Source: a virus. Taken from it: a stretch of DNA of 64,000 bases. Shown one piece after another: positions 620-63,354 of this stretch (positions within the stretch are counted from its first letter, which is position 1; every line of letters starts with the position of its first letter). A model generated the notes under the pieces. The model had not been told where the DNA came from, searched no databases, and saw only the letters and a list, made by a program, of their open reading frames with translations. The translations under genes and the position numbers were made by a program. The stretch covers positions 20,689-84,688 of IMG/VR virus record IMGVR_UViG_3300020578_000037. One strand, written 5' to 3'.

Positions 620-1954
620 TTACCCGTCGTGGTTTAATATACCGGTAATAGGGTCTGCCCACCCCTTACTAATACTATGAGGCCATACAATCCAGCTATG
701 TGGCGGCTCTTCAATATTAAACTCTCTCCAAACCTTACAATACTTGTCAGGATCCGCAAACATTCTATCAATCTCACCTCTATCGGCATCTTTACGGTAA
801 ACATCATTACCGTTTTTATCCTTAAACGCTACGCACCAAAAATCATAGTCTTTCTCAGGTACTTGCTCGTATCTAATATCAATACAATGTTTAAAGATTC
901 TTAAGAAAGATTGCTCATATTCTTCCTTAGTCTTAAAATTATTAGGATTAGGCGCTAAATTATTATCCAGCGTAAATCTCTGCACTGCCCTTCTTTTAAA
1001 ATGAAGACCAGAGTAAGCCTCGTAATCAGAAACTGAACGTTCTGTACCAAACCCATACTTACCGAATTTAATTTTCTTGGTATTAGGATCCATTCCAAAG
1101 AGAATTCTATTTCTTTGATGTGAAAGTTTATTTAACTCATACCACTGCTTAACGTCGTCCCAATGCTTTGATCTACCGCGACGAGTATACTCATGCCAGG
1201 CAACAACAATGTGTGGATGGAAGAGATCGTAGCCGTGTGTGAATGACCTTACAGCTAAGTTAATCTCTTCTCCGTGAAAATAATAATAAGGATCATAAGG
1301 AACTTCCTTAATCCACTTACCTAGAGTAAAAATAAAATGGGCTGAAACAAAGCGAGAAGGTATTGGCTCGGATCTCTGCTTATAGTCATCTATTGATGCA
1401 GGGAGAAAAAATACTGCACCTTCAGGAATAAATCTATCAAAATTCATTTTCCAAGGAATCATAATACGTTCAGCAGGATCATTATCAGGATTGAAGCTAG
1501 AAATATAGCCTGTAAGCAAAGGCTTTTTATGTCCTTTATCTTGAAGCTGCTTTATCATATTAATGCACTTTTCATCCCAATCCTTTACAAACCTATGATG
1601 GCTATCAATCTGTAAATGATATTCTTCATCTTGATATTTGTCCTGTATCATACTACGGGCCCAGCATGTACCTTTGCTTTCCATACATGGAATGGGTATT
1701 ACCCTAAATCTTTTATCATCCGTAAATTCTGCTAACGTTTCAGTATCATCTCGCTGCCAGCAAATACCGAAAACTAGATTGTCAGGATTTTTAGCATTAG
1801 CGATACAATCTCTTATTGTAGGTAGTAACTGAGGATCGCGGTATGAAGCAATAGATATAAATATTTTATCACTTCCTGAAGACTTTTTAGTTGTCGATTT
1901 TGATTTAGTTAAAGATTTAGATACAGCTTTAGATTTAGTAATTTTTCTTTTCAC
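620..1954 (-). CDS. GT60-like UDP-GlcNAc:polypeptide/hydroxyproline GlcNAc transferase (Gnt1-like)
   Basis: Motifs IFISIASYRDP, QIDSHHRF (DxH), SAHFIF, VPYDP and FHGEE; GTG start. Confidence 0.85.
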   Translation of the reverse strand: MKRKITKSKAVSKSLTKSKSTTKKSSGSDKIFISIASYRDPQLLPTIRDCIANAKNPDNLVFGICWQRDDTETLAEFTDDKRFRVIPIPCMESKGTCWARSMIQDKYQDEEYHLQIDSHHRFVKDWDEKCINMIKQLQDKGHKKPLLTGYISSFNPDNDPAERIMIPWKMNFDRFIPEGAVFFLPASIDDYKQRSEPIPSRFVSAHFIFTLGKWIKEVPYDPYYYFHGEEINLAVRSFTHGYDLFHPHIVVAWHEYTRRGRSKHWDDVKQWYELNKLSHQRNRILFGMDPNTKKIKFGKYGFGTERSVSDYEAYSGLHFKRRAVQRFTLDNNLAPNPNNFKTKEEYEQSFLRIFKHCIDIRYEQVPEKDYDFWCVAFKDKNGNDVYRKDADRGEIDRMFADPDKYCKVWREFNIEEPPHSWIVWPHSISKGWADPITGILNHDG

Positions 1955-1960
1955 TAAATT

Positions 1961-1988
1961 ATTTTATTAGATAGTCAGCAAAAATCAA
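1961..1988 (-). promoter_or_regulatory. sigma70-like promoter of the GT60 gene (TTGATT-N16-TAAAAT-N6-GTG)
   Basis: Read directly; same geometry as nine other promoters in the window. Confidence 0.6.
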
Positions 1989-3766
1989 TAGTAGTAAATC
2001 GTTATAGTAACACTGACTATAGTACCTGAATCTCTAGGAGTAAAGTCTTCTATATATAATTTCCAAGTACCGTTAATATTTGCTGGTGTAGCATTATTAT
2101 ATACGCCTAAATTAGCAACATACGGCCCTGCAGGGCATCCATTTATCAGATCAAAGTCTACCTCACTAGATGCGGTAAATGGTTTAAATGTACCTGCTGA
2201 AGTACCATCCCATACTTGAGAAGCTAATTGATCGAAGGTAACTGTTATTGGCGTATCTCCTATTCCTTCTCCTGTATTATAAGAAAGCAAAGTAGCAACA
2301 CCTGCAGGTGAAACTAAAAGTATTCCTAAGTCTTCATTATAGCTATGAGTTAAATTATTAAGTGTAACAGTAATATTATATGCATTGCTAGGTACACCAG
2401 AGACATTAATATTAAGCGGGTAGGGAGTTGCTATACCGAAAGAGGGTATTGCAATACCACCGGTAGATGTAAATGAAAGAGCAGCTTTAGGTGACGGCGT
2501 CATAGTAGGTGTTGCGGTAGGCGTTCTAGTATTTGTCGGTGTAATAGTAGGGGTTCTAGTTACTGTTGGTGTAGAGGTGTTCGTAGGTGTACTCGTACGT
2601 GTAGGGCCAGGTGTTCTAGTCACTGTAGGAGTATTAGTGGGCGTTCTTGTATTTGTTGGTGTGTTAGTTGTTGTTCTTGTCACTGTAGGAGTGTTAGTGG
2701 GCGTTCTTGTAGTAGTAGGTGTGGGTGAAGGTGATCTTGTAAAAGTAGGTGTGTATGTAGGGGTAAAGGTATATGTAGGGGTAACGGATGGAGTTCTAGT
2801 GTATGTTGGTGTATTTGTTGGTGTTGGTGTGTTTGTAGGTGTCTCAGTAGGTGTACTAGTGTTTGTTGGGGTTATAGAAATTGTAGGGGTTAATGAAATT
2901 GTTGGTGTGTTTGTGGGTGTTTCTGAGGGTGTTAATGAAAGTGTAGGTGTAAGAGACGGTGAAACAGAAATAGTAGGTGTATTAGATGGTGTAGAAGTAT
3001 TTGTGGGTGTAATAGAAGGTGTTGGTGTGGGTGTCAGGAAAAATGCATTAGCGTTAATACTCTTTATAGCTAATACAGCTGCATTAATATCAGTTGGAAA
3101 GTTCATGGGACCAAAGCTATAACCAATAGCAGGAAATACTGTTGGTGATATAGAATAGTTTAATTTATGGTCTACTATATTAATGAACCTATCTTTTATC
3201 TTATGATCTATTACAACTCTAGTACCTAAATCGGTAATTCTGACTCTAAAAGTTCTAAATGACGGTAATGGTTCTTTAGATGGGTCTACATTAGGAGTGA
3301 TTGTTTTTGGTATTTGCCTGTAAAGCTGAAAGGGTTCTGAAAAAGCAGAACTAGATAATGATTCTGTTCTATATAGGGGGTAGAAATCTTGTGATGTACC
3401 GCCTCTTAAAGTAATAGTGTTAGGTAAGGGCGATGCAAATCCACTTATAGTAGGTGTAAGGTTGGTTGAACCAAACTCACCGGTAGAATCGAAACCTATA
3501 GCAAGCTGACAATTTTGCGATCCTTGAAAATCTACTGTAGAAGCTCCTGTTAATGCTCTTAACCCTGCTACACCTAGAGCAGGCCCCGGGCCGCCTCCAG
3601 CAAGCTCTTTATTAGCATCAACAAAAAATAAGCTAAATCCATAATAACCTGATAGAGCATATCCAAAAAAAGCATACTCAAAAGTGACTATAAAATCTTT
3701 AGAAGTGTCTATGGTTTCATAGAAATATAATACTGATGATTTATCTAATGTAGAGAGTGTATACAT
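1985..3766 (-). CDS. Putative virion/receptor-binding protein: L-type lectin-like domain, Thr/Pro mucin-like stalk, proprotein-convertase P-domain
   Basis: N-terminal GFSLFF...[11 protein letters not shown]; about 180 aa of TPT(N/R)T repeats; C-terminal [18 protein letters not shown]...[10 protein letters not shown]; last gene of the baseplate run. Confidence 0.7.
2490..3036 (-). repeat. Low-complexity coding repeat (Thr-Pro-Thr units)
   Basis: Imperfect gtaggtgt/gttggtgt units; near-identical 38-mers at 2613-2650 and 2673-2710 (60 bp period). Confidence 0.9.
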
Positions 3767-3767
3767 A

Positions 3768-6700: not shown

Positions 6701-6908
6701 TAGATAAATTTTTTACTTCATACCAATTGTTTAAGTAAGACTGATATCTATTTAAAAAGTCATCAGCATTAGTAAAAAGGTTGGTGTTATATTTTAGCCA
6801 CTCTTGAAAAGTTAATGGTGAATTAGCATCTACCGGATTATTTGGCTTTTCAAAGGATGTTATTGAAACAGATAATCTTTCATCAATAAATCTGCTAGAA
6901 TTTGACAT
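3768..6908 (-). CDS. Large virion structural protein, possibly baseplate wedge (gp7-like N-terminus)
   Basis: 1046 aa, in the baseplate operon; late box TTAAATA 5 nt before ATG; N-terminal LYY...LKGS resembles the wedge KGT motif (weak). Confidence 0.5.
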
Positions 6909-6916
6909 GTAAGTAT

Positions 6917-9900
6917 TTAATTGTTATATACTATGTTACTACCACTAAGAAACAGGCGTAATCCTTTAGTAAGCTCGTAGCTAATCATATTTTGCATAAT
7001 ACCGTTGTCTTCTGACCAGTTCTTAAAAGAACTGTTATTAAACTGAAGCGTGGTCATTTTATTATTCCAATCAATAATATTGTTAAAAATTGTGTTGTCG
7101 GGTACATAAACGTATTCATAAAACTTATAATAATCAGAAATTTCACTACCAGATAGTTTATTAGGAGCAATTAATCCCCATCCCCAATCATAACTATAGC
7201 TCGAAAGAGGAATTAATGTATTATATGGTGTAGGGGTATTACCTTTATAAATTAAATCTGTATTAACAAGTTTATAGATATCTGAAAATACTTCGTACGC
7301 GACTAACGGAACACCTGAAGATATTGAACTAGTTAATGTATTGAGCTCTGTACCTATATTAACTGGATTAGTTACTGTACCTAAGCTATTGTTAAAAGCT
7401 TCTGCAAATTTATTTGTATCGCCCCATAGATTTTTGTGCTTAATAGATAATAAGTTAACCAATCTCGTTAACTGTGGAGGAAATGGATAGTTATATTGCT
7501 CAAATTGAATAGAAAGTTCATTACAAAATGAAACTAGTTGATCTAAGTTACATTTATCAATATCAGAATTATTATTAACATAGTTTGCTATTTTTTCATA
7601 AATAGTTTTTCCTAATTCATAAGGTTGTGCACTTACATTACCTACAATAGTCCCCAAGAAGTCATCAAAAAATCTATTTTTATCTTCTAAAGATTCAGTA
7701 AAAATAAGTGACTTGTAAAATTCTTGAGCGTTAAAATCTTCATTTACTTTAGAAATATTATACTCTCCGGAAGTAGGATATATGTTAAACGGTGTAGATT
7801 GACCAGATATAGTTCTTGTTATTGTATTAGTATTTACATACTTGTTGACCCATCTTCCGCCTAACCAGTCGCCGTATGCCTGGAAGAGCTTATCTTCAAA
7901 TGTTGATAATTCATTAACTGTAATATTAGGAAAAGCGAGGTCTACATTAGGTAATAAGTTTGCTCCGGTTACAGAAGGTAAGGTAGTATCTATAAAATAC
8001 ATTTTTTTATTAAAATTGTTTATTACCCAAACGAAATCGGAAGAATCGCAAGCTATGCCGCCTATACTGCCGATATAGTTTGTAAAGTTTCCTGATCCGC
8101 CTATAAAGTTTGTTATAGCTCCAGTACCGCCATCAATTCTTGTAAGTGTATCACGATTCTGCACAACCCAAGCGTTTTGCTTACCGTCTACAGTAATATT
8201 ACCTATTAATCTAAAACCAGTCTTCGGATACCCGGGTATTAAATTACCGTTTGAATCAAATTTATAAAGATAATCATCTCTCCCGGTTAAAGTCTTTACA
8301 TTTGTTTTACTTAAATTATATGCTGTTATCCAAACAAATTTATTTCTATCTACACATATCTCTACCGGCGATATAAGTGTAGGGAAAGGAATAACTTTTA
8401 ATAAAGTACCGTAAGGGTCATACTTTACAACAAAATTTGATATAGGGTGTGTATAAGAGACCCATACATTATTCTGTACATCTGTTTCTACTGATGAAGG
8501 TAAAAGTATATTTTCACCCGCAAATCCGCTTAAAGAAGGTATATTATAATCAGAACTAAGAGCATATACTATATTACTCACGTTAGGGTAGGCTACAGAT
8601 TTAATGTAGCCATCGATTGCATCAATTTTTATAGCTGATACAGAGTCAAAAAGTGCTATCCATACATCGCCATTACCATCCATCGCCATACTACCGGGTG
8701 CAGCGCTTTCGAGTTCAGGTGACAATAGATTAGTAGATACAATACCTGTATTAGTAAGCAGAGGATATGAAGAAAGTGAGAATGATGATAATAGTGCTCC
8801 ATTAACATCAAACTTAATTAGAGTATCGTTAGTACCATCAGCAAACCACGTAGTATATTCATCACCTTTGCCTGAACCGGAGGTAGAAACTTGAATAGAA
8901 TATACATTTCTATTTTGTCTTGCATCAAAGTATTTGTTGGATGCAGATATAGATAATGTTAAGAAACCAGGACAAAAGCTATATATTTGCTGTCTGAAAA
9001 ATCTTAATAATAAATTGTATTGTGGTACTGCTATCCAGCCGACTAGAGTATCTTTTGGAAATGAAATAGGGTCTTCTATTACCATAGAAGCTGTTAAAAT
9101 ACAATTTGTAGTAGGTTCGTTAACAGTAAAATACCCTTTATAAAATGCTCCTATCGATTGAGGAATTTCGTCATTAAAATCCTCATAAAATTTTACGCCA
9201 GTGACAGGAGATAATATATTATTTTCGTTTTTAGCTATTCCTATTTTTAAATTATAACCTGTAGGTGGTTGCACGTACGTAACGACAGATGAAGAGGAAA
9301 GAGGTGGATATGTTTTTGTTGTATAGTTCTCATCATCCTTCATTCTAATAACAAACGGAATTTCAGTGTTTTGCCAGCTTATAACTGGCATATTAAAATT
9401 AGTTGCAGAAAGAGCGCCTTCACCATCGATACCATTGCTAGTGATTGATAATGATTGAGCTGGGTTATGTCTTACTTTGATTATAGGCATTACTGCTGGT
9501 TTTAAATTTTGAAAACCAAATTCCGTATATGGAATATATTCATAAGAATTATTATAAAGTGTATATTTGTCATTAAATTTAGAATTATCAAAAGATGCAA
9601 AAATAAAGATTGGTGCGTCGCGTGATGTGTAGTTTTTAGCTGCATCATCAACATAGTAAAAACTAGCGGACCCTGTAGTACCACAAAAAACACTACCTTC
9701 ATCATCTTTACCACAGATTTCTATTTTTTTATTTTGGTTTATTCTTGCGTAAATTTCTGTATTAGAAGTTACTACTCTATCTACTGTTACTAATTCAAAA
9801 TTATCCCCTATTTGTTGAAGTTGATAGAATCTACTTAATGCTCTTAAATGGGACCATTTATCACTTTGAGCTATATTAACATCTAAGTATTCACCATAAG

Positions 9901-12242: not shown

Positions 12243-12722
12243 TTATTCATTTAAAAAGAATCCTGAATTACTTAATGTTCCAACTAATATGAAGCTAGAA
12301 TTATCTATGTTTGTCATAGATAATATTAATTCTACTATATACTGTTGGTTTGCTTCGTCAGCAATAACATTTATTTTTTGAACTGTGACTCTAGGCTCAA
12401 AAGCAGTTATACCCGCTAAGACTTCATTACCTATGCTTAGCGCTACTGATTCACTAATCCTTAAGAAAAGATATTTTGGCAAATTAAGCCCGTATTCTGG
12501 ATTTAATATCCTTTGACCGGGTACTGTAGTGACTAAATTGTATATTGAATTACGTATAGCTGCGTAGTCATAATCTATTTGAATATCTTTTATCTCTCTT
12601 CTCTTCAAAAATTCATTGTTTTTTGTATAACCTAGTTGAAGATCAAGCTTTAAGTCGGTGTATGTATAATCGCTCTGTGTCCTTTCTGGCTGCGCTATTG
12701 TCTGTATATTAATATTAGCCAC
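12243..12722 (-). CDS. gp25: Baseplate wedge subunit gp25
   Basis: AIRNSIYNLVTTVPGQRILNPEYG...FEPRV (GPW/gp25 signature). Confidence 0.9.
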   Translation of the reverse strand: MANINIQTIAQPERTQSDYTYTDLKLDLQLGYTKNNEFLKRREIKDIQIDYDYAAIRNSIYNLVTTVPGQRILNPEYGLNLPKYLFLRISESVALSIGNEVLAGITAFEPRVTVQKINVIADEANQQYIVELILSMTNIDNSSFILVGTLSNSGFFLNE

Positions 12723-12727
12723 ATAGT

Positions 12728-12735
12728 TATTTATA
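12728..12735 (-). promoter_or_regulatory. T4-type late promoter TATAAATA, 5 nt before the gp25 GTG
   Basis: Exact T4 gp55 consensus; gp55 is encoded in this window. Confidence 0.8.
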
Positions 12736-12791
12736 TTACTTTTATTCTTTTAAAAATGGTTTTCTAGTAAGTAAAACAATAAATAATTTAA

Positions 12792-13397
12792 ATGAACAAG
12801 AAGTTTGTTAAACTATACGAATCAGCATTGCAAAGATTTACTAATGGCGGGTTTTTAGCGGGAGATGTAGTGGTTTTTATGAAAGATGCGCTGTCAGATC
12901 CGTGGTTTAAGTCGTTAGGCACCAATACACAAGAAAAAATTAAGAGCATGATTAATAGCGGTCTTAATCTAAGAATTTCTGCAATAAAGAATGTACGTCC
13001 TAATGTCATGGGAGCCGGTAATACAGATTATACCGGTACAGAAGTAAATGTAGATATTACTTCAGAGATTGCACCTGGCAGGTATATGGATTTCGTGACA
13101 GTCCCTGGCAGATTATTAGAACCTGTAAGTTCGTACCCAAATTTACCTGAAGTCCCTGAAATTTTTAAGAAAAATGATCCTTCAAAGAGAGTTAACATTA
13201 AACCTAAAAAGGTTAAGGATGAAGCGGAAGAAGTTCCTTTTCTTAAGCCTGGTGAAACTAGAAAATCAGATATTGGTGGAAAACTGGATACAGGAGATAG
13301 ATCACTTTTAAATAAAAATGTTTCAATACCTTCATCACCTGCTGTGAATCATAAAGACCCAGCCAGCTATACAGCAGCATATTTACCTAAGCGCTAA
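12792..13397 (+). CDS. Hypothetical late protein with CTS-like N-terminus
   Basis: 201 aa; AATAAATA 6 nt before ATG; MNKKFVKLYE. Confidence 0.7.
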   Translation: MNKKFVKLYESALQRFTNGGFLAGDVVVFMKDALSDPWFKSLGTNTQEKIKSMINSGLNLRISAIKNVRPNVMGAGNTDYTGTEVNVDITSEIAPGRYMDFVTVPGRLLEPVSSYPNLPEVPEIFKKNDPSKRVNIKPKKVKDEAEEVPFLKPGETRKSDIGGKLDTGDRSLLNKNVSIPSSPAVNHKDPASYTAAYLPKR

Positions 13398-14320: not shown

Positions 14321-14793
14321 TATTTACCTGAAGAACCAAAACCCTTTTCACCTCTTTGAGATTCTTCTACTTCACCCCATTCAACAGGCATAGAGAGTGT
14401 AAAATAAAGAGCGAATTGCGCGACTCTATCACCTACTTTGACTTGATAATCGGTATCTGTAAGATTATACAGTTTTACTCCTGCGTCGCCTCTGTAGCCA
14501 CTGTCAATAATACCTGGATGCGCCATAATTCCGTGCTTAAAACCTAATCCACTACGAGATTCGACTTTAATCCAATAGCCTTCTGGTATAGATGCAAATT
14601 TAAGCCCAACATCTACTATAGCGCTACCCTTTGCAGGGATTATCTTATCTTCTATAGAATAAACATCGTAACCTGTATCAGATTCATGATTTTTAAACGG
14701 TAATTTTGCAAGCTCATGTATCTTTTTAAACTTTAAGACAGGTAAAAACTTTAAATTAGGATCATTTTCATTAATAATCTTATTATTATACAT
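14320..14793 (-). CDS. dut: Trimeric dUTPase
   Basis: GYDV, RSGL, GIIDSGYRG, RGEKGFGSSG. Confidence 0.95.
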   Translation of the reverse strand: MYNNKIINENDPNLKFLPVLKFKKIHELAKLPFKNHESDTGYDVYSIEDKIIPAKGSAIVDVGLKFASIPEGYWIKVESRSGLGFKHGIMAHPGIIDSGYRGDAGVKLYNLTDTDYQVKVGDRVAQFALYFTLSMPVEWGEVEESQRGEKGFGSSGK

Positions 14794-14799
14794 ATTTCG

Positions 14800-14827
14800 A
14801 TTATAAAAGTGAGTTTATAAAAATCAA
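14800..14827 (-). promoter_or_regulatory. sigma70-like promoter TTGATT-N16-TATAAT-N6-ATG (dut)
   Basis: Read directly. Confidence 0.7.
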
Positions 14828-14845
14828 TAGTAAATAAATATTATT

Positions 14846-15310
14846 ATGAGCGAAGAGCTTAATGAAATGGTCGGTGATTTGTTGTCACAGCTTAATGACG
14901 CGACTGAAAAAGCAAAACAAGCAGAAAAAGAGAAGAATCCGCTAACAAAAGAAAATATGGAAAAGTTTGTTATTGAAAAAGCAGGTAAACTTGTAGAGGA
15001 GAGTATTGAAGTTGTGTCAAATGTGAAGGATTACATATCTTCTGCTCCTGAGAGCAAGGATGTAGGGTCTCTTGCTGAGCTTATTGGTGCTACGGCAACT
15101 GCTATAGAGACACTCAACAAGATAATAGTTACGGACAAAAGAAATGATACAGTTATAAAAGCCAAAGAGATGGATATAGCGTCGCGAAAAGAATTAAAAG
15201 AAGTTGATAGTCAAAATAAACTACTGGCTACTAGAGAACAAGTATTTAAAATGCTAATAGACAGCGCGAATAAGAGTGCTAAAATTATTGATGCTGAGGT
15301 AATTGACTAA
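14846..15310 (+). CDS. Putative terminase small subunit (gp16-like)
   Basis: 154 aa helical protein with helix-(APES)-helix layout like gp16; late box 5 nt upstream. Confidence 0.5.
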   Translation: MSEELNEMVGDLLSQLNDATEKAKQAEKEKNPLTKENMEKFVIEKAGKLVEESIEVVSNVKDYISSAPESKDVGSLAELIGATATAIETLNKIIVTDKRNDTVIKAKEMDIASRKELKEVDSQNKLLATREQVFKMLIDSANKSAKIIDAEVID

Positions 15311-20559: not shown

Positions 20560-20569
20560 AAATTATTAT

Positions 20570-44582: not shown

Positions 44583-44590
44583 AGTATATT

Positions 44591-44599
44591 ACCTCCTTA
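44591..44599 (-). promoter_or_regulatory. Perfect Shine-Dalgarno TAAGGAGGT, 8 nt upstream of the ATT start
   Basis: Read directly; preceded by TTGAAT(44625-30)-N16-TATAAT(44603-08). Confidence 0.85.
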
Positions 44600-44631
44600 A
44601 ATATTATAATAGAAACAATAAATAATTCAAG

Positions 44632-47391: not shown

Positions 47392-47431
47392 AGTCCTAGT
47401 ATAATGGAATGTTTAGAGAAAACAAGTAAAA

Positions 47432-47788
47432 TTATTCGTCAAACAACTTAATTACTTGCTCACCGTTATTAGTAGTAGGAGCGGCAACAGGAGCAAATAA
47501 CTTATTATACTGCTCAATCAAGCGAGGATCATTATCTACATCGAGTCCAATAACAATTGTGTCTAGGCTAAACTTCCAAGAAGTTCCATTATTACGCGAC
47601 TTCTCGCCAACAAACTCTCTAAAATAAAGCGGAATAGTTTGTACATTAAGCTGACCATTTTGCGTAGGCTGTACATGAATAATAGCGGGATTCTTAACAG
47701 TAAGAGAATTTTTGTCTGATTCTACTTGTTCAGCTAGAATTGTTCTTCCGATGTGATCAATAAAAGTAATAAGGTTCTTTTGGCTCAT
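47432..47788 (-). CDS. Hypothetical protein (possible Sm/SH3-like fold)
   Basis: 118 aa, LTVKNPAII; has its own -10 box 6 nt upstream. Confidence 0.6.
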   Translation of the reverse strand: MSQKNLITFIDHIGRTILAEQVESDKNSLTVKNPAIIHVQPTQNGQLNVQTIPLYFREFVGEKSRNNGTSWKFSLDTIVIGLDVDNDPRLIEQYNKLFAPVAAPTTNNGEQVIKLFDE

Positions 47789-47821
47789 AAATATATTTTA
47801 TATGTTTCTTTAAAAAATCAA

Positions 47822-50401: not shown

Positions 50402-50423
50402 AAATAGATTATATATTATTCAA

Positions 50424-50603
50424 TTAAAGGTGCAAAACTATTTTAAATAAAACTATTGCTGAACATATAGCGGCGACTAAGCTAGTAAATGTCCTTAAAA
50501 GCTCTAACTTATGATTATGACGGTCGACCCATATTTCAACCAAATCTCTAAGTCTACCTTCTTCTTCTAATTTTCTAATTTCTTTTTTAGTTAGGTTTTT
50601 CAT
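50424..50603 (-). CDS. Small 59-aa membrane-anchored protein
   Basis: Not in the track. Manual translation MKNLTKKEIRKLEEEGRLRDLVEIWVDRHNHKLELLRTFTSLVAAICSAIVLFKIVLHL fills the gap between the GT-B gene and gp43. Confidence 0.65.
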   Translation of the reverse strand: MKNLTKKEIRKLEEEGRLRDLVEIWVDRHNHKLELLRTFTSLVAAICSAIVLFKIVLHL

Positions 50604-51819
50604 AACTATTTAATGAATTTAATAGCTTTCTATTAGAATCCCCACAAGGAAAATTATATAGTTCATAATACTTCATATAATTGTCGTCATTTTCAAGCCA
50701 CCTTTCTTCAGCAACTTTTCTTGCCTTAGCACACATATTCATGTATCTACCTTTCTTAGAGAGGGTGTCCTCAATTTGACCAATCATTTGCTCACCAGTG
50801 TCAAATTTTATTGGAGCATTTTCATAAGTAACTAAATTTTGACATGCAATTGGTAGCCCGAAGCAACAAGCTTCTATGTATTTTAAATCACTCTTAGCTT
50901 TATTAAATGTGTTGTTTTGAAGTGGTGCGACGAACATATTAGCTTTAAGATTATAAAGCTTCTCAGGATAATTATAGAGATGTTGCCACTGATGGAACTC
51001 TAAATCACCATTGGCGACGTACTGTCTTAATGGCAGGGGAAATGCGCCTAAGAATATCCATCTGTACTTGTGTCTTGTATCAATAATAGCTTTACATACA
51101 TGTGCAAAATCATCTTGTTGATTGATGCGGTTTTCTACATCAAAATGTGCACCTGACCCGGCATATATAATTCTTGGTCTTTTATCAAACTCATCATAAT
51201 TATCAGATATTTTTTTCTCATTATAAAAATGCCCCATCCAATATTTTGGTGGGTAATTTGGAATAATTGTTATGTTTTTGTGCTTTGTTTTATCAAAATA
51301 ATAATCCTTCATGAATTTACATGTCACAGTAATTTCATCACACAAACTCATAATTTGCTGTGCAGTTTCACGAATCTGAGGATCAGTAAATGCTGGCTTA
51401 AACTTATTATAATCGGGAATGTCTTCTTTAAAAACTAAATCATCAATTTCGTAAATTATTCTAAATCCGTGTTGCTTGCTAACTTCTTTTAAAAACTGCA
51501 CAAACCTTAACTGACTCGCTGTAGCTTGTCTTTGAATTCTAACAGCTTTAACGCCTCTAAAATAATTAGGATCAAAGCACATTACTGTACTGCCGTGAAT
51601 AACCATCTTTTGATAAGCATTAAGCATATGCTCTGGCCATATCATTCTCCAGAACCCACAGCCGCTGTAATCTGCGTAATAATTTAATCCTCTAGTAAGT
51701 TCTAATTCTGGTGGCCTAGGAGGGGTCTGCTTTGTGGGGGTGCGTTGACCTTGATTAATAGGTACAAACGGCTGCACAGTAGGCGAAACAAAAGGCGAAA
51801 CGTAAGGAGAGACAACCAT
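50587..51819 (-). CDS. GT-B (GT4-like) glycosyltransferase
   Basis: GCGFWRMIWP, YEIDD, VAPLQNNTFNKAKSDLKYIEA. Confidence 0.8.
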   Translation of the reverse strand: MVVSPYVSPFVSPTVQPFVPINQGQRTPTKQTPPRPPELELTRGLNYYADYSGCGFWRMIWPEHMLNAYQKMVIHGSTVMCFDPNYFRGVKAVRIQRQATASQLRFVQFLKEVSKQHGFRIIYEIDDLVFKEDIPDYNKFKPAFTDPQIRETAQQIMSLCDEITVTCKFMKDYYFDKTKHKNITIIPNYPPKYWMGHFYNEKKISDNYDEFDKRPRIIYAGSGAHFDVENRINQQDDFAHVCKAIIDTRHKYRWIFLGAFPLPLRQYVANGDLEFHQWQHLYNYPEKLYNLKANMFVAPLQNNTFNKAKSDLKYIEACCFGLPIACQNLVTYENAPIKFDTGEQMIGQIEDTLSKKGRYMNMCAKARKVAEERWLENDDNYMKYYELYNFPCGDSNRKLLNSLNSYEKPN

Positions 51820-51827
51820 ATATTATA

Positions 51828-53639
51828 TTATATGCTAACCTCTTTATAATCAACTTTACGGGTAATACCATTACTTTTTTCTAGATATATAATATCTCCG
51901 GTAGCCGCTTTAATGCTTTCTTTTCTATGACTTATAACCATGATACATTCATTAAATTTTTCTACTCTTTCTCTTAATATACCAATAACCAACTCCACAC
52001 CCTTTTCATCGAGACTCGAGTCAAATAATTCATCATATATACTAAAATTAAAAGATATATCTCCTTGAAGACGTCTGATGTCCATAAAGGTGAAAAGACA
52101 TGCTAAGTCAATATTTTTTCTCTCAGCACCGCTAAAATTAAAGTAAGAGCAGGGCTTACCCTTATTATCAACAATCTCTTCTTCAAAATATTCATTAAAC
52201 GTACAGATACAATTTGCGTCCATTTTCTTAAGGTAATAAGCAAGCTTACTATTAAACAGCTGCAACATTTTCTTTACAATATATGATTTTACACCTTCTT
52301 CGGATACAATAAACTTAACTACATCTAAGTTATTTAAAGATATTTTTAATTCCTCAATCTCATTCTTAACTGTCTCTAGCCTTTCGTTTTGTTCTTTAAT
52401 AAATGCATCAAATGAATCGTTGTCCTTTTCAATATCTTTAAGATCTTGTTCCAATTCTACTTGCCACTGGTTTAATTGATTTAATCTTTGCTGTAAGTTT
52501 TCTTTTTCTTTTAGTTTATGCTTATATGCATTGGTATCTTCTCTTAGTAACAGTAGCTTACTTTCAACAGTCTCGCGTGCTTTTTTAAATGTACTTTCAT
52601 CTTTCTTACCGCTCTCAATATCCAAATTATATGTATCTATTTCGGTATTAATCTTATTCTTTTCTGTTTTAATGTGATTTCTATCTGTATCCTTAATTGG
52701 GCGCAAACAAGTAGGGCATACATCTTTATCGGTGCCTACGTTAAGCAGCTTTTTATTAAGCTGTGTTATTAAGGTTGATTTTTCTGAAATAGAATGACGG
52801 ACTTCTTGCAGTTTTTTATCAATCTTTTCTATATTTTTCTCTTGTTCTATAATTTGCTTACCTAAGTCATCAACATTAGGTAGTTCAAAGTTAGTTAATT
52901 TTTTGCTTATATCATTTATTTCAACAATATTATTTTGCTTACGTGTTTCGTATTTTTCTTTCTTTCTTTGTTTTTCAATCAAGAAATTTTCTTTTTGTTT
53001 TTTATGATTTAAGATAGTTTTAGTAATTTCATCATGTTTCGCTACTTCTATATCATAAGTTTTCTTCTTTTCAGCTATATCTACCTTGAGCAAATTTAAC
53101 ATGTTTCCAAAAACACTAAGATTAAAGATATCTTCAATAAATTTTCTTTTCTCTTGCTTTTTCTTAGCCATAAACGGTATAGTATTATTAACCGTCATTA
53201 TTACGCAGTTTTGAAATACTTCAGGTGTACAGTTAAATTTTGATGTTATAAAAGCGTTAGTGTTTGAAATTGAATCTCTGGTTTTATCGTCTCCGTTTAT
53301 ATATATAAAACATTTTGATGGTTCTAATGTTCTTATAATTTGAAGTTCTTCCTTGCTATCAAAATTCTGAATAGTTACATCTAAAATAATTTCACAATTT
53401 TTTTTATTAATATTATTAATAATATTTTCCTTTTTGAGGTCACGTAAAGTCTCACCAAACACACCAAAATAAATTGCATCTGCTACTGTAGATTTACCTA
53501 CGCCGTTTCTTCTGTCTTCCTTATCCTTATTAATACCTGTAATAATATGAAGGCCTTTTTTAAAATCTATTACAACTGGCTGATTACCAACAGATAAAAA
53601 ATTCTTGATACTAATCTTATTAAATTGAATATGTCTCAT
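51828..53639 (-). CDS. gp46: Recombination ATPase gp46 (Rad50/SbcC-like)
   Basis: NFLSVGN, NGVGKST, CPTC hook, FSGAE, DELFDSSLD. Confidence 0.95.
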   Translation of the reverse strand: MRHIQFNKISIKNFLSVGNQPVVIDFKKGLHIITGINKDKEDRRNGVGKSTVADAIYFGVFGETLRDLKKENIINNINKKNCEIILDVTIQNFDSKEELQIIRTLEPSKCFIYINGDDKTRDSISNTNAFITSKFNCTPEVFQNCVIMTVNNTIPFMAKKKQEKRKFIEDIFNLSVFGNMLNLLKVDIAEKKKTYDIEVAKHDEITKTILNHKKQKENFLIEKQRKKEKYETRKQNNIVEINDISKKLTNFELPNVDDLGKQIIEQEKNIEKIDKKLQEVRHSISEKSTLITQLNKKLLNVGTDKDVCPTCLRPIKDTDRNHIKTEKNKINTEIDTYNLDIESGKKDESTFKKARETVESKLLLLREDTNAYKHKLKEKENLQQRLNQLNQWQVELEQDLKDIEKDNDSFDAFIKEQNERLETVKNEIEELKISLNNLDVVKFIVSEEGVKSYIVKKMLQLFNSKLAYYLKKMDANCICTFNEYFEEEIVDNKGKPCSYFNFSGAERKNIDLACLFTFMDIRRLQGDISFNFSIYDELFDSSLDEKGVELVIGILRERVEKFNECIMVISHRKESIKAATGDIIYLEKSNGITRKVDYKEVSI

Positions 53640-54706
53640 AGAGCTAATGCTTTTTTATACAGATCTAAACAATACTTTGATACATTGTTTTTATTCTCGA
53701 TGTCCAGAAGATTGACAAATTCTTCAATTGCTTTATTCATATCAACGCCAGATAAATCAAAATTTTGATCGTCAATAACAGCGATAGAATCATCATAAAG
53801 AGAATAATCAACGCTTAAGCTAAACGGCTTATAAGATGATATTTTTTGTATTAATGCATCGATTGTATCACTCGATATTTTTTTATCTATTATAAGTTTT
53901 ATAATATTATTTTCAATTTGCGCCTTTAAATTTTCAGATTTAGAAGCTTTTTGATCAACGAGATTAGAGATTGATATTTTTTTATGCTTAGGTGAGAGAG
54001 CGTTTTCATGAAAATCATATTTTAAATTAGGTATATCGAGAATGTAATACCCTTTAGAAGATTCTATATCACCGAAATCCATTTCAAACGGATTACCAAC
54101 GTAAACTATAGTCTTGTCATTATATTTACGTTCATCACGGAGATGAAAATGCCCGGTCATAATAAGAGTACCTTTATCTAGTAAATCCTTGGTTTTTAGC
54201 CCATGATCGCAAAGCTTGTGTAAATTCATTTTAAAACTTTCGATTTCCAAATGACCAAAAATAATATCGCTCGTCTCAATATTAGATATATCAGCACCCC
54301 AGGGCAAAAACGTGCATTTCTTACCGTACAGATTATGGTTTTCTATATTACTAATAATTCTAATATTTTTCCAGCCGTTTAAAATAGAAAGTGAATTAAT
54401 ATCTGTCCTGTCTTTATAAAACGAATCATGATTGCCTACTAATATTACAATATTAAAATTTTCCCATTCTTTTAAAATCTGATTAACGATATGGATGGTA
54501 TTAACAGCTATTTCATCTCTATAGTGATATACATCGCCAAGAATAACAATATCTTTTATATTTTTAGCTATAAGCTCTTGCTTAAGCCAGGTAGCCCATT
54601 TAATAGCAGTATCGTGCCATAAATTGCTATTTTGATGCACACCAATGTGTAAATCACCAATACAGCAAACCTGACTTTTATTAAGATTAATTTCCTCTGA
54701 CTTCAT
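53636..54706 (-). CDS. gp47: Recombination nuclease gp47 (Mre11/SbcD-like)
   Basis: GDLHIG, LGDV, GNHD, GHLE, GHFH. Confidence 0.93.
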   Translation of the reverse strand: MKSEEINLNKSQVCCIGDLHIGVHQNSNLWHDTAIKWATWLKQELIAKNIKDIVILGDVYHYRDEIAVNTIHIVNQILKEWENFNIVILVGNHDSFYKDRTDINSLSILNGWKNIRIISNIENHNLYGKKCTFLPWGADISNIETSDIIFGHLEIESFKMNLHKLCDHGLKTKDLLDKGTLIMTGHFHLRDERKYNDKTIVYVGNPFEMDFGDIESSKGYYILDIPNLKYDFHENALSPKHKKISISNLVDQKASKSENLKAQIENNIIKLIIDKKISSDTIDALIQKISSYKPFSLSVDYSLYDDSIAVIDDQNFDLSGVDMNKAIEEFVNLLDIENKNNVSKYCLDLYKKALAL

Positions 54707-55314
54707 GAAGCGGTGTTATAATTATCGTCATCGACCTTATCTGGCTCTACGTATATGTGTGCGCCACCCATTAGCTCCGGATTAATCATGTGTTCTGTAT
54801 AAACCTTTGCTCTATATTCATCTAATGCAGCGTGATGCTTATTTTCCTTCTTAATTCTATTAATAAAGGCATGAAACGCAATAGTTGTAAAGTACGAAAA
54901 AGGACTAAACCCTGTATCAAGCTTAAATTTTTTATTCCTTAATGCAGAGAACATTTTTACTATAGCATCTCCTATCATATCATCTTTATAAGAATAATTG
55001 ATAAAGTTGGGAGCATAAGATAGACCGTTAGCAATTTTAGTGAGGCTTTCTCCGAGCTTTGTTGTTATATGCCCAGATTTATAATACTGTCTTATTTCTT
55101 CTTCGAATTCTTTTCCGTTAACATAATGCACCTTATCTTTAGCTGCAGTTTTTTTAGCTGATGGTGTAACTACTGGTACCTGTATTACTCCAGTTTCAAT
55201 TATTTTCTTCAGCTCGGGATCGAGCTGAGATGTATTACTCTTCTTTTTTAAAGAGCTGGTTTTCTTAACTTTCAATAATTTCTCTGGTAGAGTATTTAAT
55301 TTTTTCTTTTTCAT
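54703..55314 (-). CDS. gp55: Late transcription sigma factor gp55
   Basis: HYVNGKEF, PNFINYSYKDDMIGDA, PFSYFTTIAFHAFINRIKKE. Confidence 0.93.
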   Translation of the reverse strand: MKKKKLNTLPEKLLKVKKTSSLKKKSNTSQLDPELKKIIETGVIQVPVVTPSAKKTAAKDKVHYVNGKEFEEEIRQYYKSGHITTKLGESLTKIANGLSYAPNFINYSYKDDMIGDAIVKMFSALRNKKFKLDTGFSPFSYFTTIAFHAFINRIKKENKHHAALDEYRAKVYTEHMINPELMGGAHIYVEPDKVDDDNYNTAS

Positions 55315-56728: not shown

Positions 56729-57117
56729 GTAGTTTCAAGCTTAATAATGTCTACTAAATTCTTAATGTCGTATGATGTAGAGCTGAGTGTTTTCTCAGAC
56801 TTTTCAAGCAATTCAATAATTAATTCTGTTTGCTTTATCTTTGTATCAGCTTCTACAATATCACTATGCTTTTCTGCTGTGCGCTCTATTACTGGGATTG
56901 CTAATTTAACAGGGCTTTGTTCTTGAATCTTTTCTACTAATTCTTTCTTAATAAGTTCTCTTCTTTTCTTTAAATCAATTAGTTCTAACTTATGTCTTAT
57001 GCATCTGCCTGCCCATTTATGCTTAATACCGGGTAATTTTAACTGATAATCTTTAAGAATAAGCTCGTCTATTTTTAAGTCGTTCTCTAGTTCTTTTATA
57101 TATTCGTCTAACAGCAT
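56725..57117 (-). CDS. uvsY: Recombination mediator UvsY
   Basis: DLKIDEL...LPGIKHKW, YDIKNLVD; adjacent to uvsW. Confidence 0.8.
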   Translation of the reverse strand: MLLDEYIKELENDLKIDELILKDYQLKLPGIKHKWAGRCIRHKLELIDLKKRRELIKKELVEKIQEQSPVKLAIPVIERTAEKHSDIVEADTKIKQTELIIELLEKSEKTLSSTSYDIKNLVDIIKLETT

Positions 57118-57141
57118 TAATAAATAATAACATAAAGTATT

Positions 57142-57399
57142 ATGAAATCAATAGGTTTATTTGAAGCTGCTTTTATAAAAACACTTAATGAAGATAATGT
57201 TGCAGGTGGTATTGGTAGTGTTTTCGGTCCTGGAACTTTATTTGCAATAGGTACCTCGGGCAATCAATTTCCTTCTCAAACTGACAATGCATATGCCCCG
57301 GGAGATTCAAGGGTGCCTAAAGCTTTAGGGCTTAAGAAAAAGGGTAAAAAAACAAAATTAAAAATACAAAGAAGGCCTTTGCCAGGCTTAGAGCTGTAA
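57142..57399 (+). CDS. Hypothetical protein with CTS-like N-terminus
   Basis: MKSIGLFEAAFIKTLNE; YAPGDSRVP. Confidence 0.65.
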   Translation: MKSIGLFEAAFIKTLNEDNVAGGIGSVFGPGTLFAIGTSGNQFPSQTDNAYAPGDSRVPKALGLKKKGKKTKLKIQRRPLPGLEL

Positions 57400-57411
57400 G
57401 TAAATAGTTAA

Positions 57412-57831
57412 GTGGAACTAGGACATTGGATTCTCGGAGATTCAGTAAAACTGGAAGAATCTACGTTCGGCTTTATTTACGAAATAACTAATACCGCAAC
57501 AAATAAAAAGTATATTGGTAAAAAACAATGTAAGTCGAAGCTTAAAAGAGCTCCGTTAAAAGGAAGAAAGAATAAGCGAATTGAAATAAAAGAATCTGAT
57601 TGGAGAGAATATACCAGCTCTTCTACAGAGCTAAATGAAGATATAAAAAAATACGGTAAGGATAAATTTATTTTTAAAATTTTAAAAACTTGTAATTCAA
57701 AATGGGAGTTAGCCTATTTTGAAATATTTGAGCAAATTAAAAATAATGTTTTATTAAGAGATGATTATTATAATGGTATTATAAATGTAAGAATAGGTCG
57801 ACCGCCAAAAAAATTTCTTGAACAAATTTAA
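57412..57831 (+). CDS. GIY-YIG endonuclease
   Basis: GFIYEITN...KKYIGKK, YFE, YYN. Confidence 0.85.
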   Translation: MELGHWILGDSVKLEESTFGFIYEITNTATNKKYIGKKQCKSKLKRAPLKGRKNKRIEIKESDWREYTSSSTELNEDIKKYGKDKFIFKILKTCNSKWELAYFEIFEQIKNNVLLRDDYYNGIINVRIGRPPKKFLEQI

Positions 57832-58407: not shown

Positions 58408-58423
58408 TAAGATAAATATATAC

Positions 58424-58870
58424 ATGGGGTTTATTGATTCATTTAACAAATACATGTCTCTTGTAACAGAAGCAGATATGCAGCCTCAAGACGCTGCAGC
58501 GCCAGCACCGGCCGCAGAGGCACCTCAGCCTAATGTCGCGCCTCAGGAAGCTCCTAAAGCAAATTCCGTGCCCCCAGAAGGCTACGTAGATATTGTTAGG
58601 TTGCTAGCAAAAGCCCTGGTAATGAACATACCTGCAGGTTCAATAGACGATCTCTTTACTACACCGATAACTAAAGAAAATGCTACTGAGGTTAGAGAAG
58701 GTCTGCAGGCTGCAATAGCTGCAAACGAAAATTATCAGGATAATCCTCAAAAAATTGAAAATCCACATTTTAAAAAGTTTGTGAATTCAATAAATGAAAA
58801 TAATTTTATGGCAAAGTATAAAGAAATTCTCAATATAATGAAACGGTACAGCAATGATATTGCTGCATAA
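58424..58870 (+). CDS. Hypothetical late protein with CTS-like N-terminus
   Basis: GATAAATA 5 nt before ATG; MGFIDSFNKYMSLVTE. Confidence 0.75.
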   Translation: MGFIDSFNKYMSLVTEADMQPQDAAAPAPAAEAPQPNVAPQEAPKANSVPPEGYVDIVRLLAKALVMNIPAGSIDDLFTTPITKENATEVREGLQAAIAANENYQDNPQKIENPHFKKFVNSINENNFMAKYKEILNIMKRYSNDIAA

Positions 58871-62035: not shown

Positions 62036-62602
62036 TTATTTTTTATTCTCTAAAAGAACTATTGTTTCAAAAAGAACTTTCTCTAGCGTTTCGCGTGATT
62101 CTCTTTTTAAAACGCTCTGTAATTGCCTAACTAAATCCTCTCCGCCTGCTGAAATAGCCTTAAAAAGATCCTCTTCATTATTTTCTTCTAGGTTACCTCC
62201 GCATACCGCATCTGTGGGTTCAGTTACAGCTTTATAATCCTCATAGCCAAATACCGATTGTATTTGATCATGAGCATTGGTAAGTTTGCTTAAGATCCAT
62301 GCTTCTACATTATCTTTACCGTTCAATATATCATGTAGCATTGCTGAAACTTTATGTATTCTAAATAACAATTGCCGGCACATTTCACCATTACTTTCTG
62401 ATTCATCATTTACTCTGCCTTCACAACCTTCTTCATGTCCTCCCTCACAATTACAATTCTTATTAGGAGGTACTACTTGTGCCATTTTATCAGGAGAAGG
62501 AATAACACCAGAGTTATCAGCCTTAGGGCCTAAGCCCACGCTTTCATTAACGATCTTTTTGTTATATAGATCATTTAATGCATTAAAATCTTTGGCAAAC
62601 AT
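62036..62602 (-). CDS. Hypothetical late protein
   Basis: TTAAATA 5 nt before ATG; VEAWILSKLT helix-bundle motif. Confidence 0.7.
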   Translation of the reverse strand: MFAKDFNALNDLYNKKIVNESVGLGPKADNSGVIPSPDKMAQVVPPNKNCNCEGGHEEGCEGRVNDESESNGEMCRQLLFRIHKVSAMLHDILNGKDNVEAWILSKLTNAHDQIQSVFGYEDYKAVTEPTDAVCGGNLEENNEEDLFKAISAGGEDLVRQLQSVLKRESRETLEKVLFETIVLLENKK

Positions 62603-62634
62603 GTAATTATTTAATCAATTGAATAAATAATTTT

Positions 62635-62922
62635 ATGTTATTTGAAAGAGCGTTTCTAAATGCATTAGAACGGGATATACTAGAAGAAAGTAAAGGCTCA
62701 CGTTGCACTAAAGTAACAGGACAACAATCATCAACGCGCTCTGACAAAAAATATATGAGATGTGTAAAGTCGGGTAGTGGTTATAAAAAAATACATTATG
62801 GTGATCCGAATTTAAGAATTAAAAAATCAAATCCTAAAAAAAGAAAATCTTTTAGAGCTAGACATAAGTGCTCTTCTGCAAAACCCGGTACACCTAAGTA
62901 TTATAGCTGTAAAAACTGGTAG
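62635..62922 (+). CDS. Small basic Cys/His protein of T4-like phages
   Basis: YGDPNLRIKKSNPKKRKSFRARHKC...YYSCKNW; late box 5 nt upstream. Confidence 0.75.
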   Translation: MLFERAFLNALERDILEESKGSRCTKVTGQQSSTRSDKKYMRCVKSGSGYKKIHYGDPNLRIKKSNPKKRKSFRARHKCSSAKPGTPKYYSCKNW

Positions 62923-63308
62923 CCGTTACTTGTTGAGTAGTAAATCTTTTTAAAATTTAACTGATCTAGAAGAGAGCTGCATCCGGTACAGGGTTTAGAA
63001 AAATCTAATTGATTGTTTCTATTAATACGGGTATTAACAATAGTATATTTAGAACAATCCTCTTCTCCAAGCTTTAAAATAGCCGATAATTCTGAATGTA
63101 CACCTATTGTATGTGATATATCTTCACCTTTTCTATTAAAAAAACCAATCTTTAAATTTTTTGGATGAGTTTTATTGGGATTATTAATACCTATTGAAAT
63201 TAGCCGATTCCTTTGAAAAATGAACGAGAAATGCTTACAGCGATAATTACCATGCTTCTTTAGAAGCGCATAAGAAATTTCAGTGCATTTCTTAAAAATA
63301 TTGTCCAT
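62901..63308 (-). CDS. Zn-dependent cytidine/dCMP deaminase-family protein
   Basis: HSE...SKPCTGC; start moved to the ATG at 63308 (TATAAT 6 nt upstream). Confidence 0.8.
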   Translation of the reverse strand: MDNIFKKCTEISYALLKKHGNYRCKHFSFIFQRNRLISIGINNPNKTHPKNLKIGFFNRKGEDISHTIGVHSELSAILKLGEEDCSKYTIVNTRINRNNQLDFSKPCTGCSSLLDQLNFKKIYYSTSNGYQFLQL

Positions 63309-63354
63309 TATTACATTATACATGAAAACATCTTTTTAATCAATAAATATTATA

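Follow-up and report, generated by a model that had tools for sequence, protein, structure and literature searches.

The window analysed here is a stretch of 64,000 nucleotides (nt), bases 20689-84688 of the 84,688-bp IMG/VR record IMGVR_UViG_3300020578_000037, a virus record with an estimated completeness of 39% and a GC content of ~32%. We found that two kinds of promoter box, one of the host sigma-70 type and one of the T4 late (gp55) type, stand at nearly fixed distances, only a few nucleotides, in front of start codons. Judging from sequence, we regard it as probable that the first gene of most transcription units is expressed as a leaderless mRNA (leader of 0-2 nt) from host-sigma early and gp55-type late promoters, and that the downstream genes are translated by coupling. 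The evidence consists of the positions of the boxes, their enrichment and conservation, the restriction of the start codons to those beginning with a purine, the scarcity of Shine-Dalgarno (SD) sequences and the presence of gp55 and clamp genes.

PHROG and Pfam scans revealed a T4-type set of replication and recombination genes, including those of the gp43 polymerase, gp41 helicase, gp61-type primase, gp32, gp44 clamp loader, UvsX, UvsY, gp46/gp47, UvsW-like helicase and dUTPase, as well as T4-type virion genes for the baseplate wedge, sheath, tube and large terminase subunit. The same scans identified a gp55-like late sigma factor gene at 54703..55314 on the minus strand (phrog_234, E 1.7e-26), whose product is presumed to be the reader of the TAAATA boxes. 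The open reading frame (ORF) at 38661..39392 (minus strand) was without any match in sequence-family searches (PHROG, Pfam, others). A first-pass annotation made from the letters alone had labeled it gp45, which is borne out at the level of the fold: its AlphaFold model, computed with 25 orthologues, has a pLDDT of 90.9 and matches PCNA-type clamps in Foldseek (E 1e-13, TM 0.74), as is characteristic for a sliding clamp of the gp45/PCNA fold. The gp43 protein is ~30% identical to its best tblastn matches (HTVC008M, cyanophages) and a megablast of 15 kb against a phage collection gave no match; by sequence, the phage is an uncultured member of a distant T4-like lineage, far from anything cultured.

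Promoter boxes and start codons

As for the early promoters, the first-pass annotation had listed ten TTGnnn-N16-TAnnnT sites and had placed the start codon 6 nt (once 5 nt) past the -10 box at all of them except that of a glutamine amidotransferase gene. All ten sites are present, on the minus strand, and nine of them precede the first start codon of the longest ORF, with a gap of 6 nt at the GT60, dUTPase, primase, clamp, gp32, uvsX, gp43 and uvsY genes and of 5 nt at ORF 34315-34731. The further 6-nt gaps that it had reported for gp41, an RmlD-like gene, the ORF starting at 47788 and a deaminase gene hold too, that of the deaminase if its second ATG (63308) is the start. We found 118 matches to TTGNNN-N16-TANNNT on both strands of the 84,688-bp record. 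The comparison of motif positions with background that the annotation had proposed as a check places nine of these composites 5-6 nt before an ORF start, with all remaining gaps between 0 and 40 nt empty. The 6-nt spacing is likewise enriched, with 8 cases observed, where 2000 shuffles of the upstream 50 nt gave 0.07 on average and never more than 2. Among the genes annotated by PHROG, Pfam or fold, those headed by sigma-70-type promoters encode the dUTPase, primase, clamp, gp32, gp41, UvsX, gp43, UvsY, deaminase and glycosyltransferases, and include no virion gene.

The second class is more numerous. TAAATA stands before 23 of 85 ORF starts, at a gap of 5 nt in 15 cases, 6 nt in five and 7 nt in three, where ~0.09 would be expected per gap. 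It precedes 20 of the 78 ATG/GTG ORF starts vs. 5 of 3826 other ATG/GTG triplets, and three of those five (31599, 38308 and 63355) start long frames that the ORF caller had missed or placed elsewhere. Virion genes have boxes of the TATAAATA type in the -10 position, unaccompanied by a -35 element; these boxes share the TAAATA core, which is invariant through the selection of the sites, while the two bases before it are weakly A/T-biased and no conservation is seen further upstream. Genes headed by TAAATA include those of the tube, the sheath and gp25-like proteins, unannotated ORFs of the structural block and small ORFs on either strand. The claim that the core replication genes are leaderless is therefore supported by the sequence-level tests, but its scope was too narrow, as the gp55-type late promoters are fused to start codons too.

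The two modal gaps correspond to the two distances between box and transcription start. In sigma-70 promoters the -10 hexamer occupies positions -12 to -7, leaving a gap of 6 nt before +1. The late box of T4, a TATA box of 8 bp, starts at -13 and ends at -6 (PMC2988020). Its last six bases thus lie at -11 to -6 and +1 comes 5 nt after. With the modal gaps of 6 nt in the early and 5 nt in the late class, +1 would in both cases coincide with the first base of the start codon.

The start codons themselves point in the same direction. ORFs behind a late box begin with ATG (17) or GTG (6), and those behind a -35 plus -10 promoter with ATG (8) or GTG (4), so that all 35 fused sites of these two classes in the record lead to ATG or GTG and none to TTG. 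In turn, the seven ORFs with a -10 box only start with ATG (4), GTG (2) or TTG (1), and the 43 without any box with ATG (35), GTG (2) or TTG (6). The fused starts obey the rule known from mycobacteria, where a leaderless mRNA is initiated at ATG or GTG but not at TTG (PMC4633059). The absence of SD sequences before these genes, also noted in the first-pass annotation, was confirmed: SD-like 4-mers at a gap of 4-10 nt are found ahead of only 4 of the 85 ORFs, none of them a fused gene. Out of 37 ORFs that head a unit, 28 carry a fused promoter. A further 46 ORFs start no more than 15 nt from an upstream ORF on the same strand; 32 of them have neither promoter nor SD (8 of the 32 overlap the preceding ORF by 4 nt), and the other 14 also carry a box.

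We compared these features with about 150 IMG/VR relatives, comprising 23 loci around gp43, 78 around the sheath gene (of at least 585 sheath relatives) and 48 around the clamp gene; for counts within ortholog groups only rows with aligned N-termini and distinct upstream regions were used. For gp43, 22 of 23 relatives have an exact TATAAT at a gap of 5-7 nt (6 nt in 17 of them, 7 nt in four and 5 nt in one). This holds at protein identities of 59-85%; the six bases between box and start are variable, and GTG serves as start codon in 16 loci and ATG in seven. The clamp gene has TTG-N16/17-TAnnnT at a gap of 5-8 nt in 36/36 distinct upstreams. The fused early promoter is retained in 31/32 orthologues of the primase and 22/31 of gp32, and for gp41 a TTG-N16/17 promoter with a gap of 6-8 nt is present in 21 of 25 relatives. 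In the relatives' gap-6 sites a TTG stands exactly 16 nt upstream in 36 of 50, and at 17 nt in four. Upstream of ORF 47432-47788, GTTGATTT is kept in 17/18 relatives, and GTGGATTT is found in locus L012. GTG is preserved as the start codon in 33 of 34 distinct upstreams of the primase gene, and likewise in 33 of 34 for ORF 25099-26013. Start-anchored footprints show conserved islands only at the -35 box, at the -10 or late box, and from the start codon onward, and genes internal to units remain box-free (33/33, 33/33 and 33/34 relatives).

Late boxes behave similarly. In the 78 structural loci, TAAATA occurs at a gap of 5-6 nt before 306 of 752 ORFs, as compared to 0.72 expected per gap. The start codons of these 306 are ATG in 235 and GTG in 71, with no TTG, even though 92 of the 752 ORFs were called with a TTG start (many of these calls may be artefacts of the caller). 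ORF 35165-35572 has a late box at a gap of 5-7 nt in 24/24 relatives with aligned N-termini. In two more distant loci, L026 and L027, whose gp43 is about 60% identical, the fusion is kept for the orthologue of ORF 47432 and, in L027, for gp43, while it is absent for uvsX and, in L026, for gp43. This mixture indicates that the layout can be gained or lost gene by gene.

Control genomes place the layout within a lineage. In T4 (70-120 kb, 61 ORFs), with which the first-pass annotation had rightly contrasted this phage as being SD-led, TAAATA lies 9-39 nt upstream and never at 5-7 nt, and SD-like 4-mers occur 35 times at gaps of 5-8 nt. The 26 annotated starts in Syn9 60-110 kb have no fused late boxes. 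In HTVC008M (1-50 kb, 59 ORFs) TAAATA is found at gap 5 before seven ORFs and an SD-like peak is kept at gaps of 5-9 nt; a scan of this region for the hexamer by itself detected no exact TATAAT at a gap of 5-7 nt before ORFs. Hence, the layout is lineage-specific, partial in the pelagiphage and near-complete here, rather than general to T4-like phages outside the coliphages.

The mechanism that we propose involves host-sigma-type early and middle promoters (TTGAYT-N16-TATAAT), ending ~6 nt ahead of the start codon in genes for replication, recombination and nucleotides, and gp55-type late promoters with the TAAATA core, ending ~5 nt ahead of it in virion and many small genes. RNA polymerase would then start on the first base of the ATG or GTG, which yields a leaderless mRNA for the first gene of nearly every unit. 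The start points, the loading of ribosomes on a 5'-terminal AUG or GUG and the coupling are here predicted. Downstream genes, which lack promoter and SD and mostly overlap or abut the preceding stop codon, would probably be translated through termination-reinitiation coupling.

Gap variation, start calls and other explanations

Several observations weigh against a leaderless reading. To begin with, the 85 ORFs were called by our own longest-ORF heuristic, and many of the resulting TTG starts may be artefacts. Moreover, bare TANNNT at gap 6 was observed 13 times with a shuffle mean of 4.3, i.e., only ~3 times the mean, and at least one of 2000 shuffles reached 13. Such results would suit an artefact, in which start codons are mis-set or TAnnnT occurs by chance in AT-rich intergenic DNA. 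This is highly improbable and largely refuted by the alignments of gp43, uvsX, gp41, the clamp and other proteins with those of relatives, which on both sides start from residue 1, by the enrichments of the composite and the late box, which are at least 100-fold, and by the T4 and Syn9 controls, which were run likewise and show no such peak.

Nor is the DNA rich in promoter-like sequence as a whole. A generic sigma-70 consensus scan of positions 31001-51000 gave 80 sites vs. 92.9 +/- 8.8 in shuffles, i.e., no excess; the scan was rejected as a test for DNA of 32% GC. The -35 box TTGAYT matches TTGACA at 3-4 of six positions and its spacer is 16 nt rather than 17, with the -10 box near consensus. 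Given that promoter-like sites are not in excess and that the TANNNT signal is modest, the evidence lies in fixed position and conservation and not in promoter-likeness. It could be proposed from this lack of general enrichment that the boxes are no promoters at all but translation signals, i.e., SD-independent standby or enhancer sites for ribosomes, located on long polycistronic mRNAs that a few distant promoters would produce. They do occupy the usual place of a ribosome-binding site, and are also carried by the 14 of 46 ORFs mentioned above that closely follow another ORF. We hold this to be improbable, since there are two boxes with two offsets and a clean split between replication and virion genes, and the TTG co-conserved 16 nt upstream would be useless to a ribosome-binding site. 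The late box, in addition, equals the T4 late promoter core in a phage that has a gp55 gene. Experiments in Deinococcus radiodurans identified TANNNT at ~6-7 bp from the ORF as a -10 element that yields leaderless mRNA, and it could not be replaced by a ribosome-binding site (PMC12340547).

The gap itself is not strictly fixed. The 6 nt given in the first-pass annotation is the modal value, while relatives show 6 +/- 1-2 nt: among the 36 clamp upstreams it is 6 nt in 21, 7 nt in 10, 8 nt in three and 5 nt in two, and the late boxes of relatives lie at 5 nt in 193 cases and at 6 nt in 113. Some transcripts would accordingly carry leaders of 1-2 nt, unless the choice of start site shifts. This variation, in particular the gaps of 7-8 nt in 13 of 36 clamp upstreams and the large share of 6-nt late gaps, would suit real promoters from which transcription starts slightly ahead of the start codon or at variable points, with very short leaders (1-8 nt) that an SD-independent 30S pathway of an SD-ignoring host would read in place of true initiation at a 5'-terminal AUG, possibly aided by the phage homologue of ribosomal protein bS21. 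The latter has an aromatic-rich C-terminus, and such a residue has been linked to blocking of the anti-SD (PMC9723584). We find short leaders of this kind rather unlikely, because the modal gaps of 6 and 5 nt put +1 exactly on the start codon and because the start codons always begin with a purine, as expected if their first base is the initiating nucleotide. The early promoters are also unlike the Bacteroidetes type, having no TTTG after the -10 box, and the one gene with a strong conserved SD implies that, early in infection at least, the anti-SD can be used.

Other points concern the leaderless reading more directly. Nine of the 37 unit heads have no fused box, with the mis-started deaminase and the amidotransferase among them. 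In E. coli, leaderless GTG reaches less than 10% of ATG (PMC4633059), and the host is here assumed to be able to use a 5'-GUG. Finally, no RNA runs were listed for positions 38001-48000, which is not proof that none exist.

Individual promoters and the leadered amidotransferase gene

The early-type promoters described here all lie on the minus strand. That of the GT60/GlcNAc-transferase gene (PF11397) occupies 1952..1988, with TTGATT at 1983-1988, N16, TAAAAT at 1961-1966, N6 and GTG at 1952-1954. The dUTPase promoter at 14791..14827 (TTGATT-N16-TATAAT-N6-ATG) heads a unit in which the gp44 clamp-loader gene comes next with a 1-nt overlap. ORF 34315-34731 is preceded at 34729..34764 by TTGCAA-N16-TATAAT-N5-GTG, and the primase gene at 36591..36627 by TTGTTT-N16-TATACT-N6-GTG. 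The promoters of the sliding clamp (39390..39426), gp32, the ssDNA-binding protein (40675..40711), and UvsY (57115..57151) share the form TTGATT-N16-TATTAT-N6-ATG, the -35 box of the last lying in the first codons of the divergent ORF 57142-57399. The UvsX promoter at 47389..47425 reads TTGTTT-N16-TATACT-N6-ATG and that of the gp43 DNA polymerase at 50399..50435 reads TTGCAC-N16-TATAAT-N6-GTG.

Other members depart from this pattern in the spacer or the -35 box. ORF 47432-47788 has TTGATT-N15-TAAAAT-N6-ATG at 47786..47821, and the glycosyltransferase gene 50587-51819 has TTGATT-N15-TATAAT-N7-ATG at 51817..51853, with the -35 box in the end of gp46. ORF 40708-41346 is preceded by TTGCAA-N17-TACAAT-N6-ATG (41344..41381), located inside the end of the bS21 gene. 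At the gp41 helicase gene we found a -10 box at 43210..43224, TATAAT at 43219-43224 followed by N6 (gggatt) and ATG. The box of the RmlD-like gene (37955..37969) consists of TAAAAT at 37964-37969, N6 (tatata) and GTG, with no TTG at -35 in this copy. The deaminase promoter spans 63306..63343, with TTGATT at 63338-63343, N17, TATAAT at 63315-63320, N6 and ATG at 63306-63308. The longest ORF of the deaminase begins at 63323, five codons upstream of this ATG, and the arrangement of the boxes makes the second ATG (63308) the probable true start.

Late boxes are distributed over both strands. On the minus strand, TAAATA-N5-ATG precedes the 1046-aa ORF 3768-6908 of the structural block (6906..6919), the tail tube gene (26585..26598, footprint on 49 distinct upstreams), ORF 36631-36834 (36832..36845) and ORF 62036-62602 (62600..62613). 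TAAATA-N5-GTG is found on the same strand before the gp25-like baseplate wedge gene (12720..12733), ORF 25099-26013 (26011..26024) and ORF 34745-35128 (35126..35139). Longer gaps characterize the tail sheath gene (28892..28906, TAAATA-N6-ATG, footprint on 35 distinct upstreams), ORF 24335-25078 (25076..25090, TAAATA-N6-GTG), ORF 19198-20559 (20557..20572, TAAATA-N7-ATG) and ORF 37982-38311, where TAAATA-N6 at 38306..38320 leads to the second ATG (38308).

The plus strand carries TAAATA-N5-ATG before ORF 14846-15310 (14835..14848), back to back with the dUTPase early promoter, ORF 58424-58870 (58413..58426) and ORF 62635-62922 (62624..62637), the latter divergent from ORF 62036-62602 across 32 nt. 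TAAATA-N5-GTG precedes a SegE-like GIY-YIG homing endonuclease gene (box at 57401..57414; gene at 57412-57831, plus strand, PF19835, E 2e-30) and the ORF that runs off the window from 63355 (63344..63357). ORF 12792-13397 (12780..12794) and ORF 31296-32213 (31284..31298) have TAAATA-N6-ATG, the second box being positioned within the 20-nt gap to the divergent terminase gene, and ORF 35165-35572 (35152..35167) has TAAATA-N7-ATG and is divergent from ORF 34745-35128. A further box inside ORF 31296-32213 (31588..31601, plus strand) stands 5 nt before the in-frame ATG 31599, which could possibly give a nested 204-aa product besides the 305-aa one. Downstream of this ORF, a bidirectional terminator hairpin with a 10-bp stem (32242-32265), the only strong one in 31001-51000, is directly followed by a late box at 32277-32282 and, after N5, the ATG of ORF 32288-32629 (whole element 32242..32290, plus strand). 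We also observed that back-to-back promoters are packed into a few dozen shared bases at 14791-14848, 35126-35167, 44603-44634, 57115-57151 and 62600-62637, and that two late-box pairs face apart across gaps of 32-36 nt.

Unit heads without a fused box are, apart from the two named above, exemplified by the large terminase gene (29563-31275, minus strand), the tape measure gene (20570-22645, minus strand), ORF 57142-57399 (plus strand) and ORF 33348-33632 (minus strand). Two of these four have TAAATA 10 and 15 nt upstream, respectively (15 nt for ORF 57142-57399), and may possess short leaders without SD.

Of all unit heads in the record, only the Ntn-type glutamine amidotransferase gene is clearly SD-led, and its early promoter is the sole one that is not fused. 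Its leadered unit begins at 44580..44630 on the minus strand, with TTGAAT at 44625-44630, N16, TATAAT at 44603-44608, the SD AAGGAGGT at 44591-44598 and, 8 nt further, ATT at 44580-44582; the promoter, which the first-pass annotation had set apart from the 6-nt rule, indeed precedes an SD and an ATT start instead. ORF 43902-44582 begins ATT-TGC-GGA, i.e., (M)CGIFG, belongs to Pfam GATase_6/7 and has an in-frame TAA three codons upstream. ATT and GGAGGT are kept in 10/10 relatives, with a varying spacer in between. The presence of a strong SD where there is a leader argues that the missing SDs elsewhere are no oversight and that the host anti-SD is functional. The promoter spacer accommodates the late box of the divergent ORF 44632-45549 (44619..44634, plus strand, TAAATA-N7-ATG); ATTCAAG, the conserved sequence of its 7-nt gap, is complementary to the -35 box. 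The gene lies near a QueC-like gene (45564-46403, minus strand), which presumably points to a 7-deazaguanine DNA-modification module. In its longest form, the QueC-like ORF shares 131 nt with the end of uvsX (46273-47391, minus strand); as its family match begins at residue 32-44, the true start is probably further downstream, near the uvsX stop codon.

Phage bS21, known systems and implications

The bS21 homologue (71 aa, 41347..41562, minus strand) was assigned by PF01165 with 29.9 bits (cut-off 27), and a profile of nine orthologues matches 38 bS21 sequences of the PDB, with a best E of 6e-7. It is conserved in relatives as 11 distinct orthologues, and its C-terminus is aromatic-rich (KFKWKYYNY). 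No promoter is fused to the gene, the first 29 nt of which overlap with the preceding called ORF. In the Atlas, its neighbors are viral clusters only. Chen et al. report that phage bS21 proteins bear an aromatic residue close to the C-terminus and, as for Bacteroidetes-type bS21, link it to blocking of the anti-SD (PMC9723584); promoters and leaderless mRNA are mentioned 0 times in their paper. To connect bS21 with the leaderless layout is speculation only. One form of such a connection, which we rate as doubtful, is that promoter-start fusion is one half of a strategy by which the phage, whose messages would nearly all be leaderless or coupled, takes over translation initiation, the other half being its bS21. 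Through occlusion of the anti-SD by the aromatic C-terminus, ribosomes could be biased from SD-led host mRNAs to phage mRNAs with a 5'-AUG or 5'-GUG, and the amidotransferase, as the sole SD-led, AUU-initiated early gene, would be a built-in sensor or timer. In E. coli, AUU starts and leaderless mRNAs are both sensitive to initiation factor 3 (IF3).

Scans of genome contigs for a host, with the sheath protein and with a bS21 alignment, found no relative, and neither tRNA genes nor Rfam families were detected.

Among known systems, T4 late transcription (PMC2988020, PMC7892883) is alike in its gp55 homologue, gp45-fold clamp and TAAATA core before virion genes on both strands with no -35 box. 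It differs in the distance of 9-39 nt from box to start, which includes an SD, as opposed to 5-7 nt and no SD here, and the first two bases of the T4 late octamer are not conserved in this phage. The PeSL (promoter-early stem-loop) cassettes of T4-type phages, likewise early-promoter modules repeated before many genes, have a stem-loop by the promoter. Here, no PeSL-type stable stem-loop in the 50 nt upstream of 14 early promoters was better than shuffles (z -1.4 to +1.8), the defining trait being instead the fusion to the start codon. Leaderless genes of Deinococcus-Thermus (PMC12340547) and mycobacteria (PMC4633059) share the distance of ~6-7 bp between TANNNT box and start, the missing SD and the exclusive use of ATG/GTG; leadered genes of mycobacteria may use ATT with an SD (PMC4633059), as does the amidotransferase. 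Yet, those genomes belong to hosts, with about a quarter to a third of their genes leaderless, whereas here 28 of 37 unit heads of a phage are fused and a second, phage-specific promoter class is involved.

An experimental precedent for leaderless phage expression on a genome scale is provided by the Thermus thermophilus phage phiYS40, likewise a large lytic phage using host RNA polymerase, most of whose middle and late transcripts are leaderless, with initiation factor 2 (IF2) raised and IF3 lowered (Sevostyanova et al. 2007, as summarized in PMC3594737). In the phage studied here, a T4-like one, the early class is fused too, and the late class has a T4-type gp55 box. The lambda cI mRNA from PRM also starts at the AUG (PMC10491246), but lambda is otherwise SD-led and only this one regulatory gene is concerned. 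The cultured T4-like Pelagibacter phage HTVC008M resembles this phage in encoding bS21, which is incorporated into E. coli 70S ribosomes (PMC9723584), and in having some gap-5 TAAATA boxes, and differs in its SD-like peak and a gp43 with 30% identity. We found no literature on a leaderless architecture in T4-like phages, the search having covered sources other than subscription journals and supplements; mentions of "leaderless" together with cyanophages or HTVC008M in the papers checked were merely citations of the GeneMarkS-2 paper.

If the leaderless reading is true, a large and environmentally abundant branch of T4-like phages would express nearly its whole genome without ribosome-binding leaders, the textbook layout of T4 would be overturned for this branch, and the gp55 late system would be able to drive leaderless mRNAs. 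Gene calling in viral metagenomes would be affected, as promoter boxes could be used to set start codons in the way done here for the deaminase. The layout would also offer a clue to the host, whose ribosomes would be proficient on 5'-GUG, and the long-puzzling phage bS21 genes would gain a concrete, testable hypothesis. With HTVC008M in culture and showing a partial form of the layout, an experimental entry point exists.

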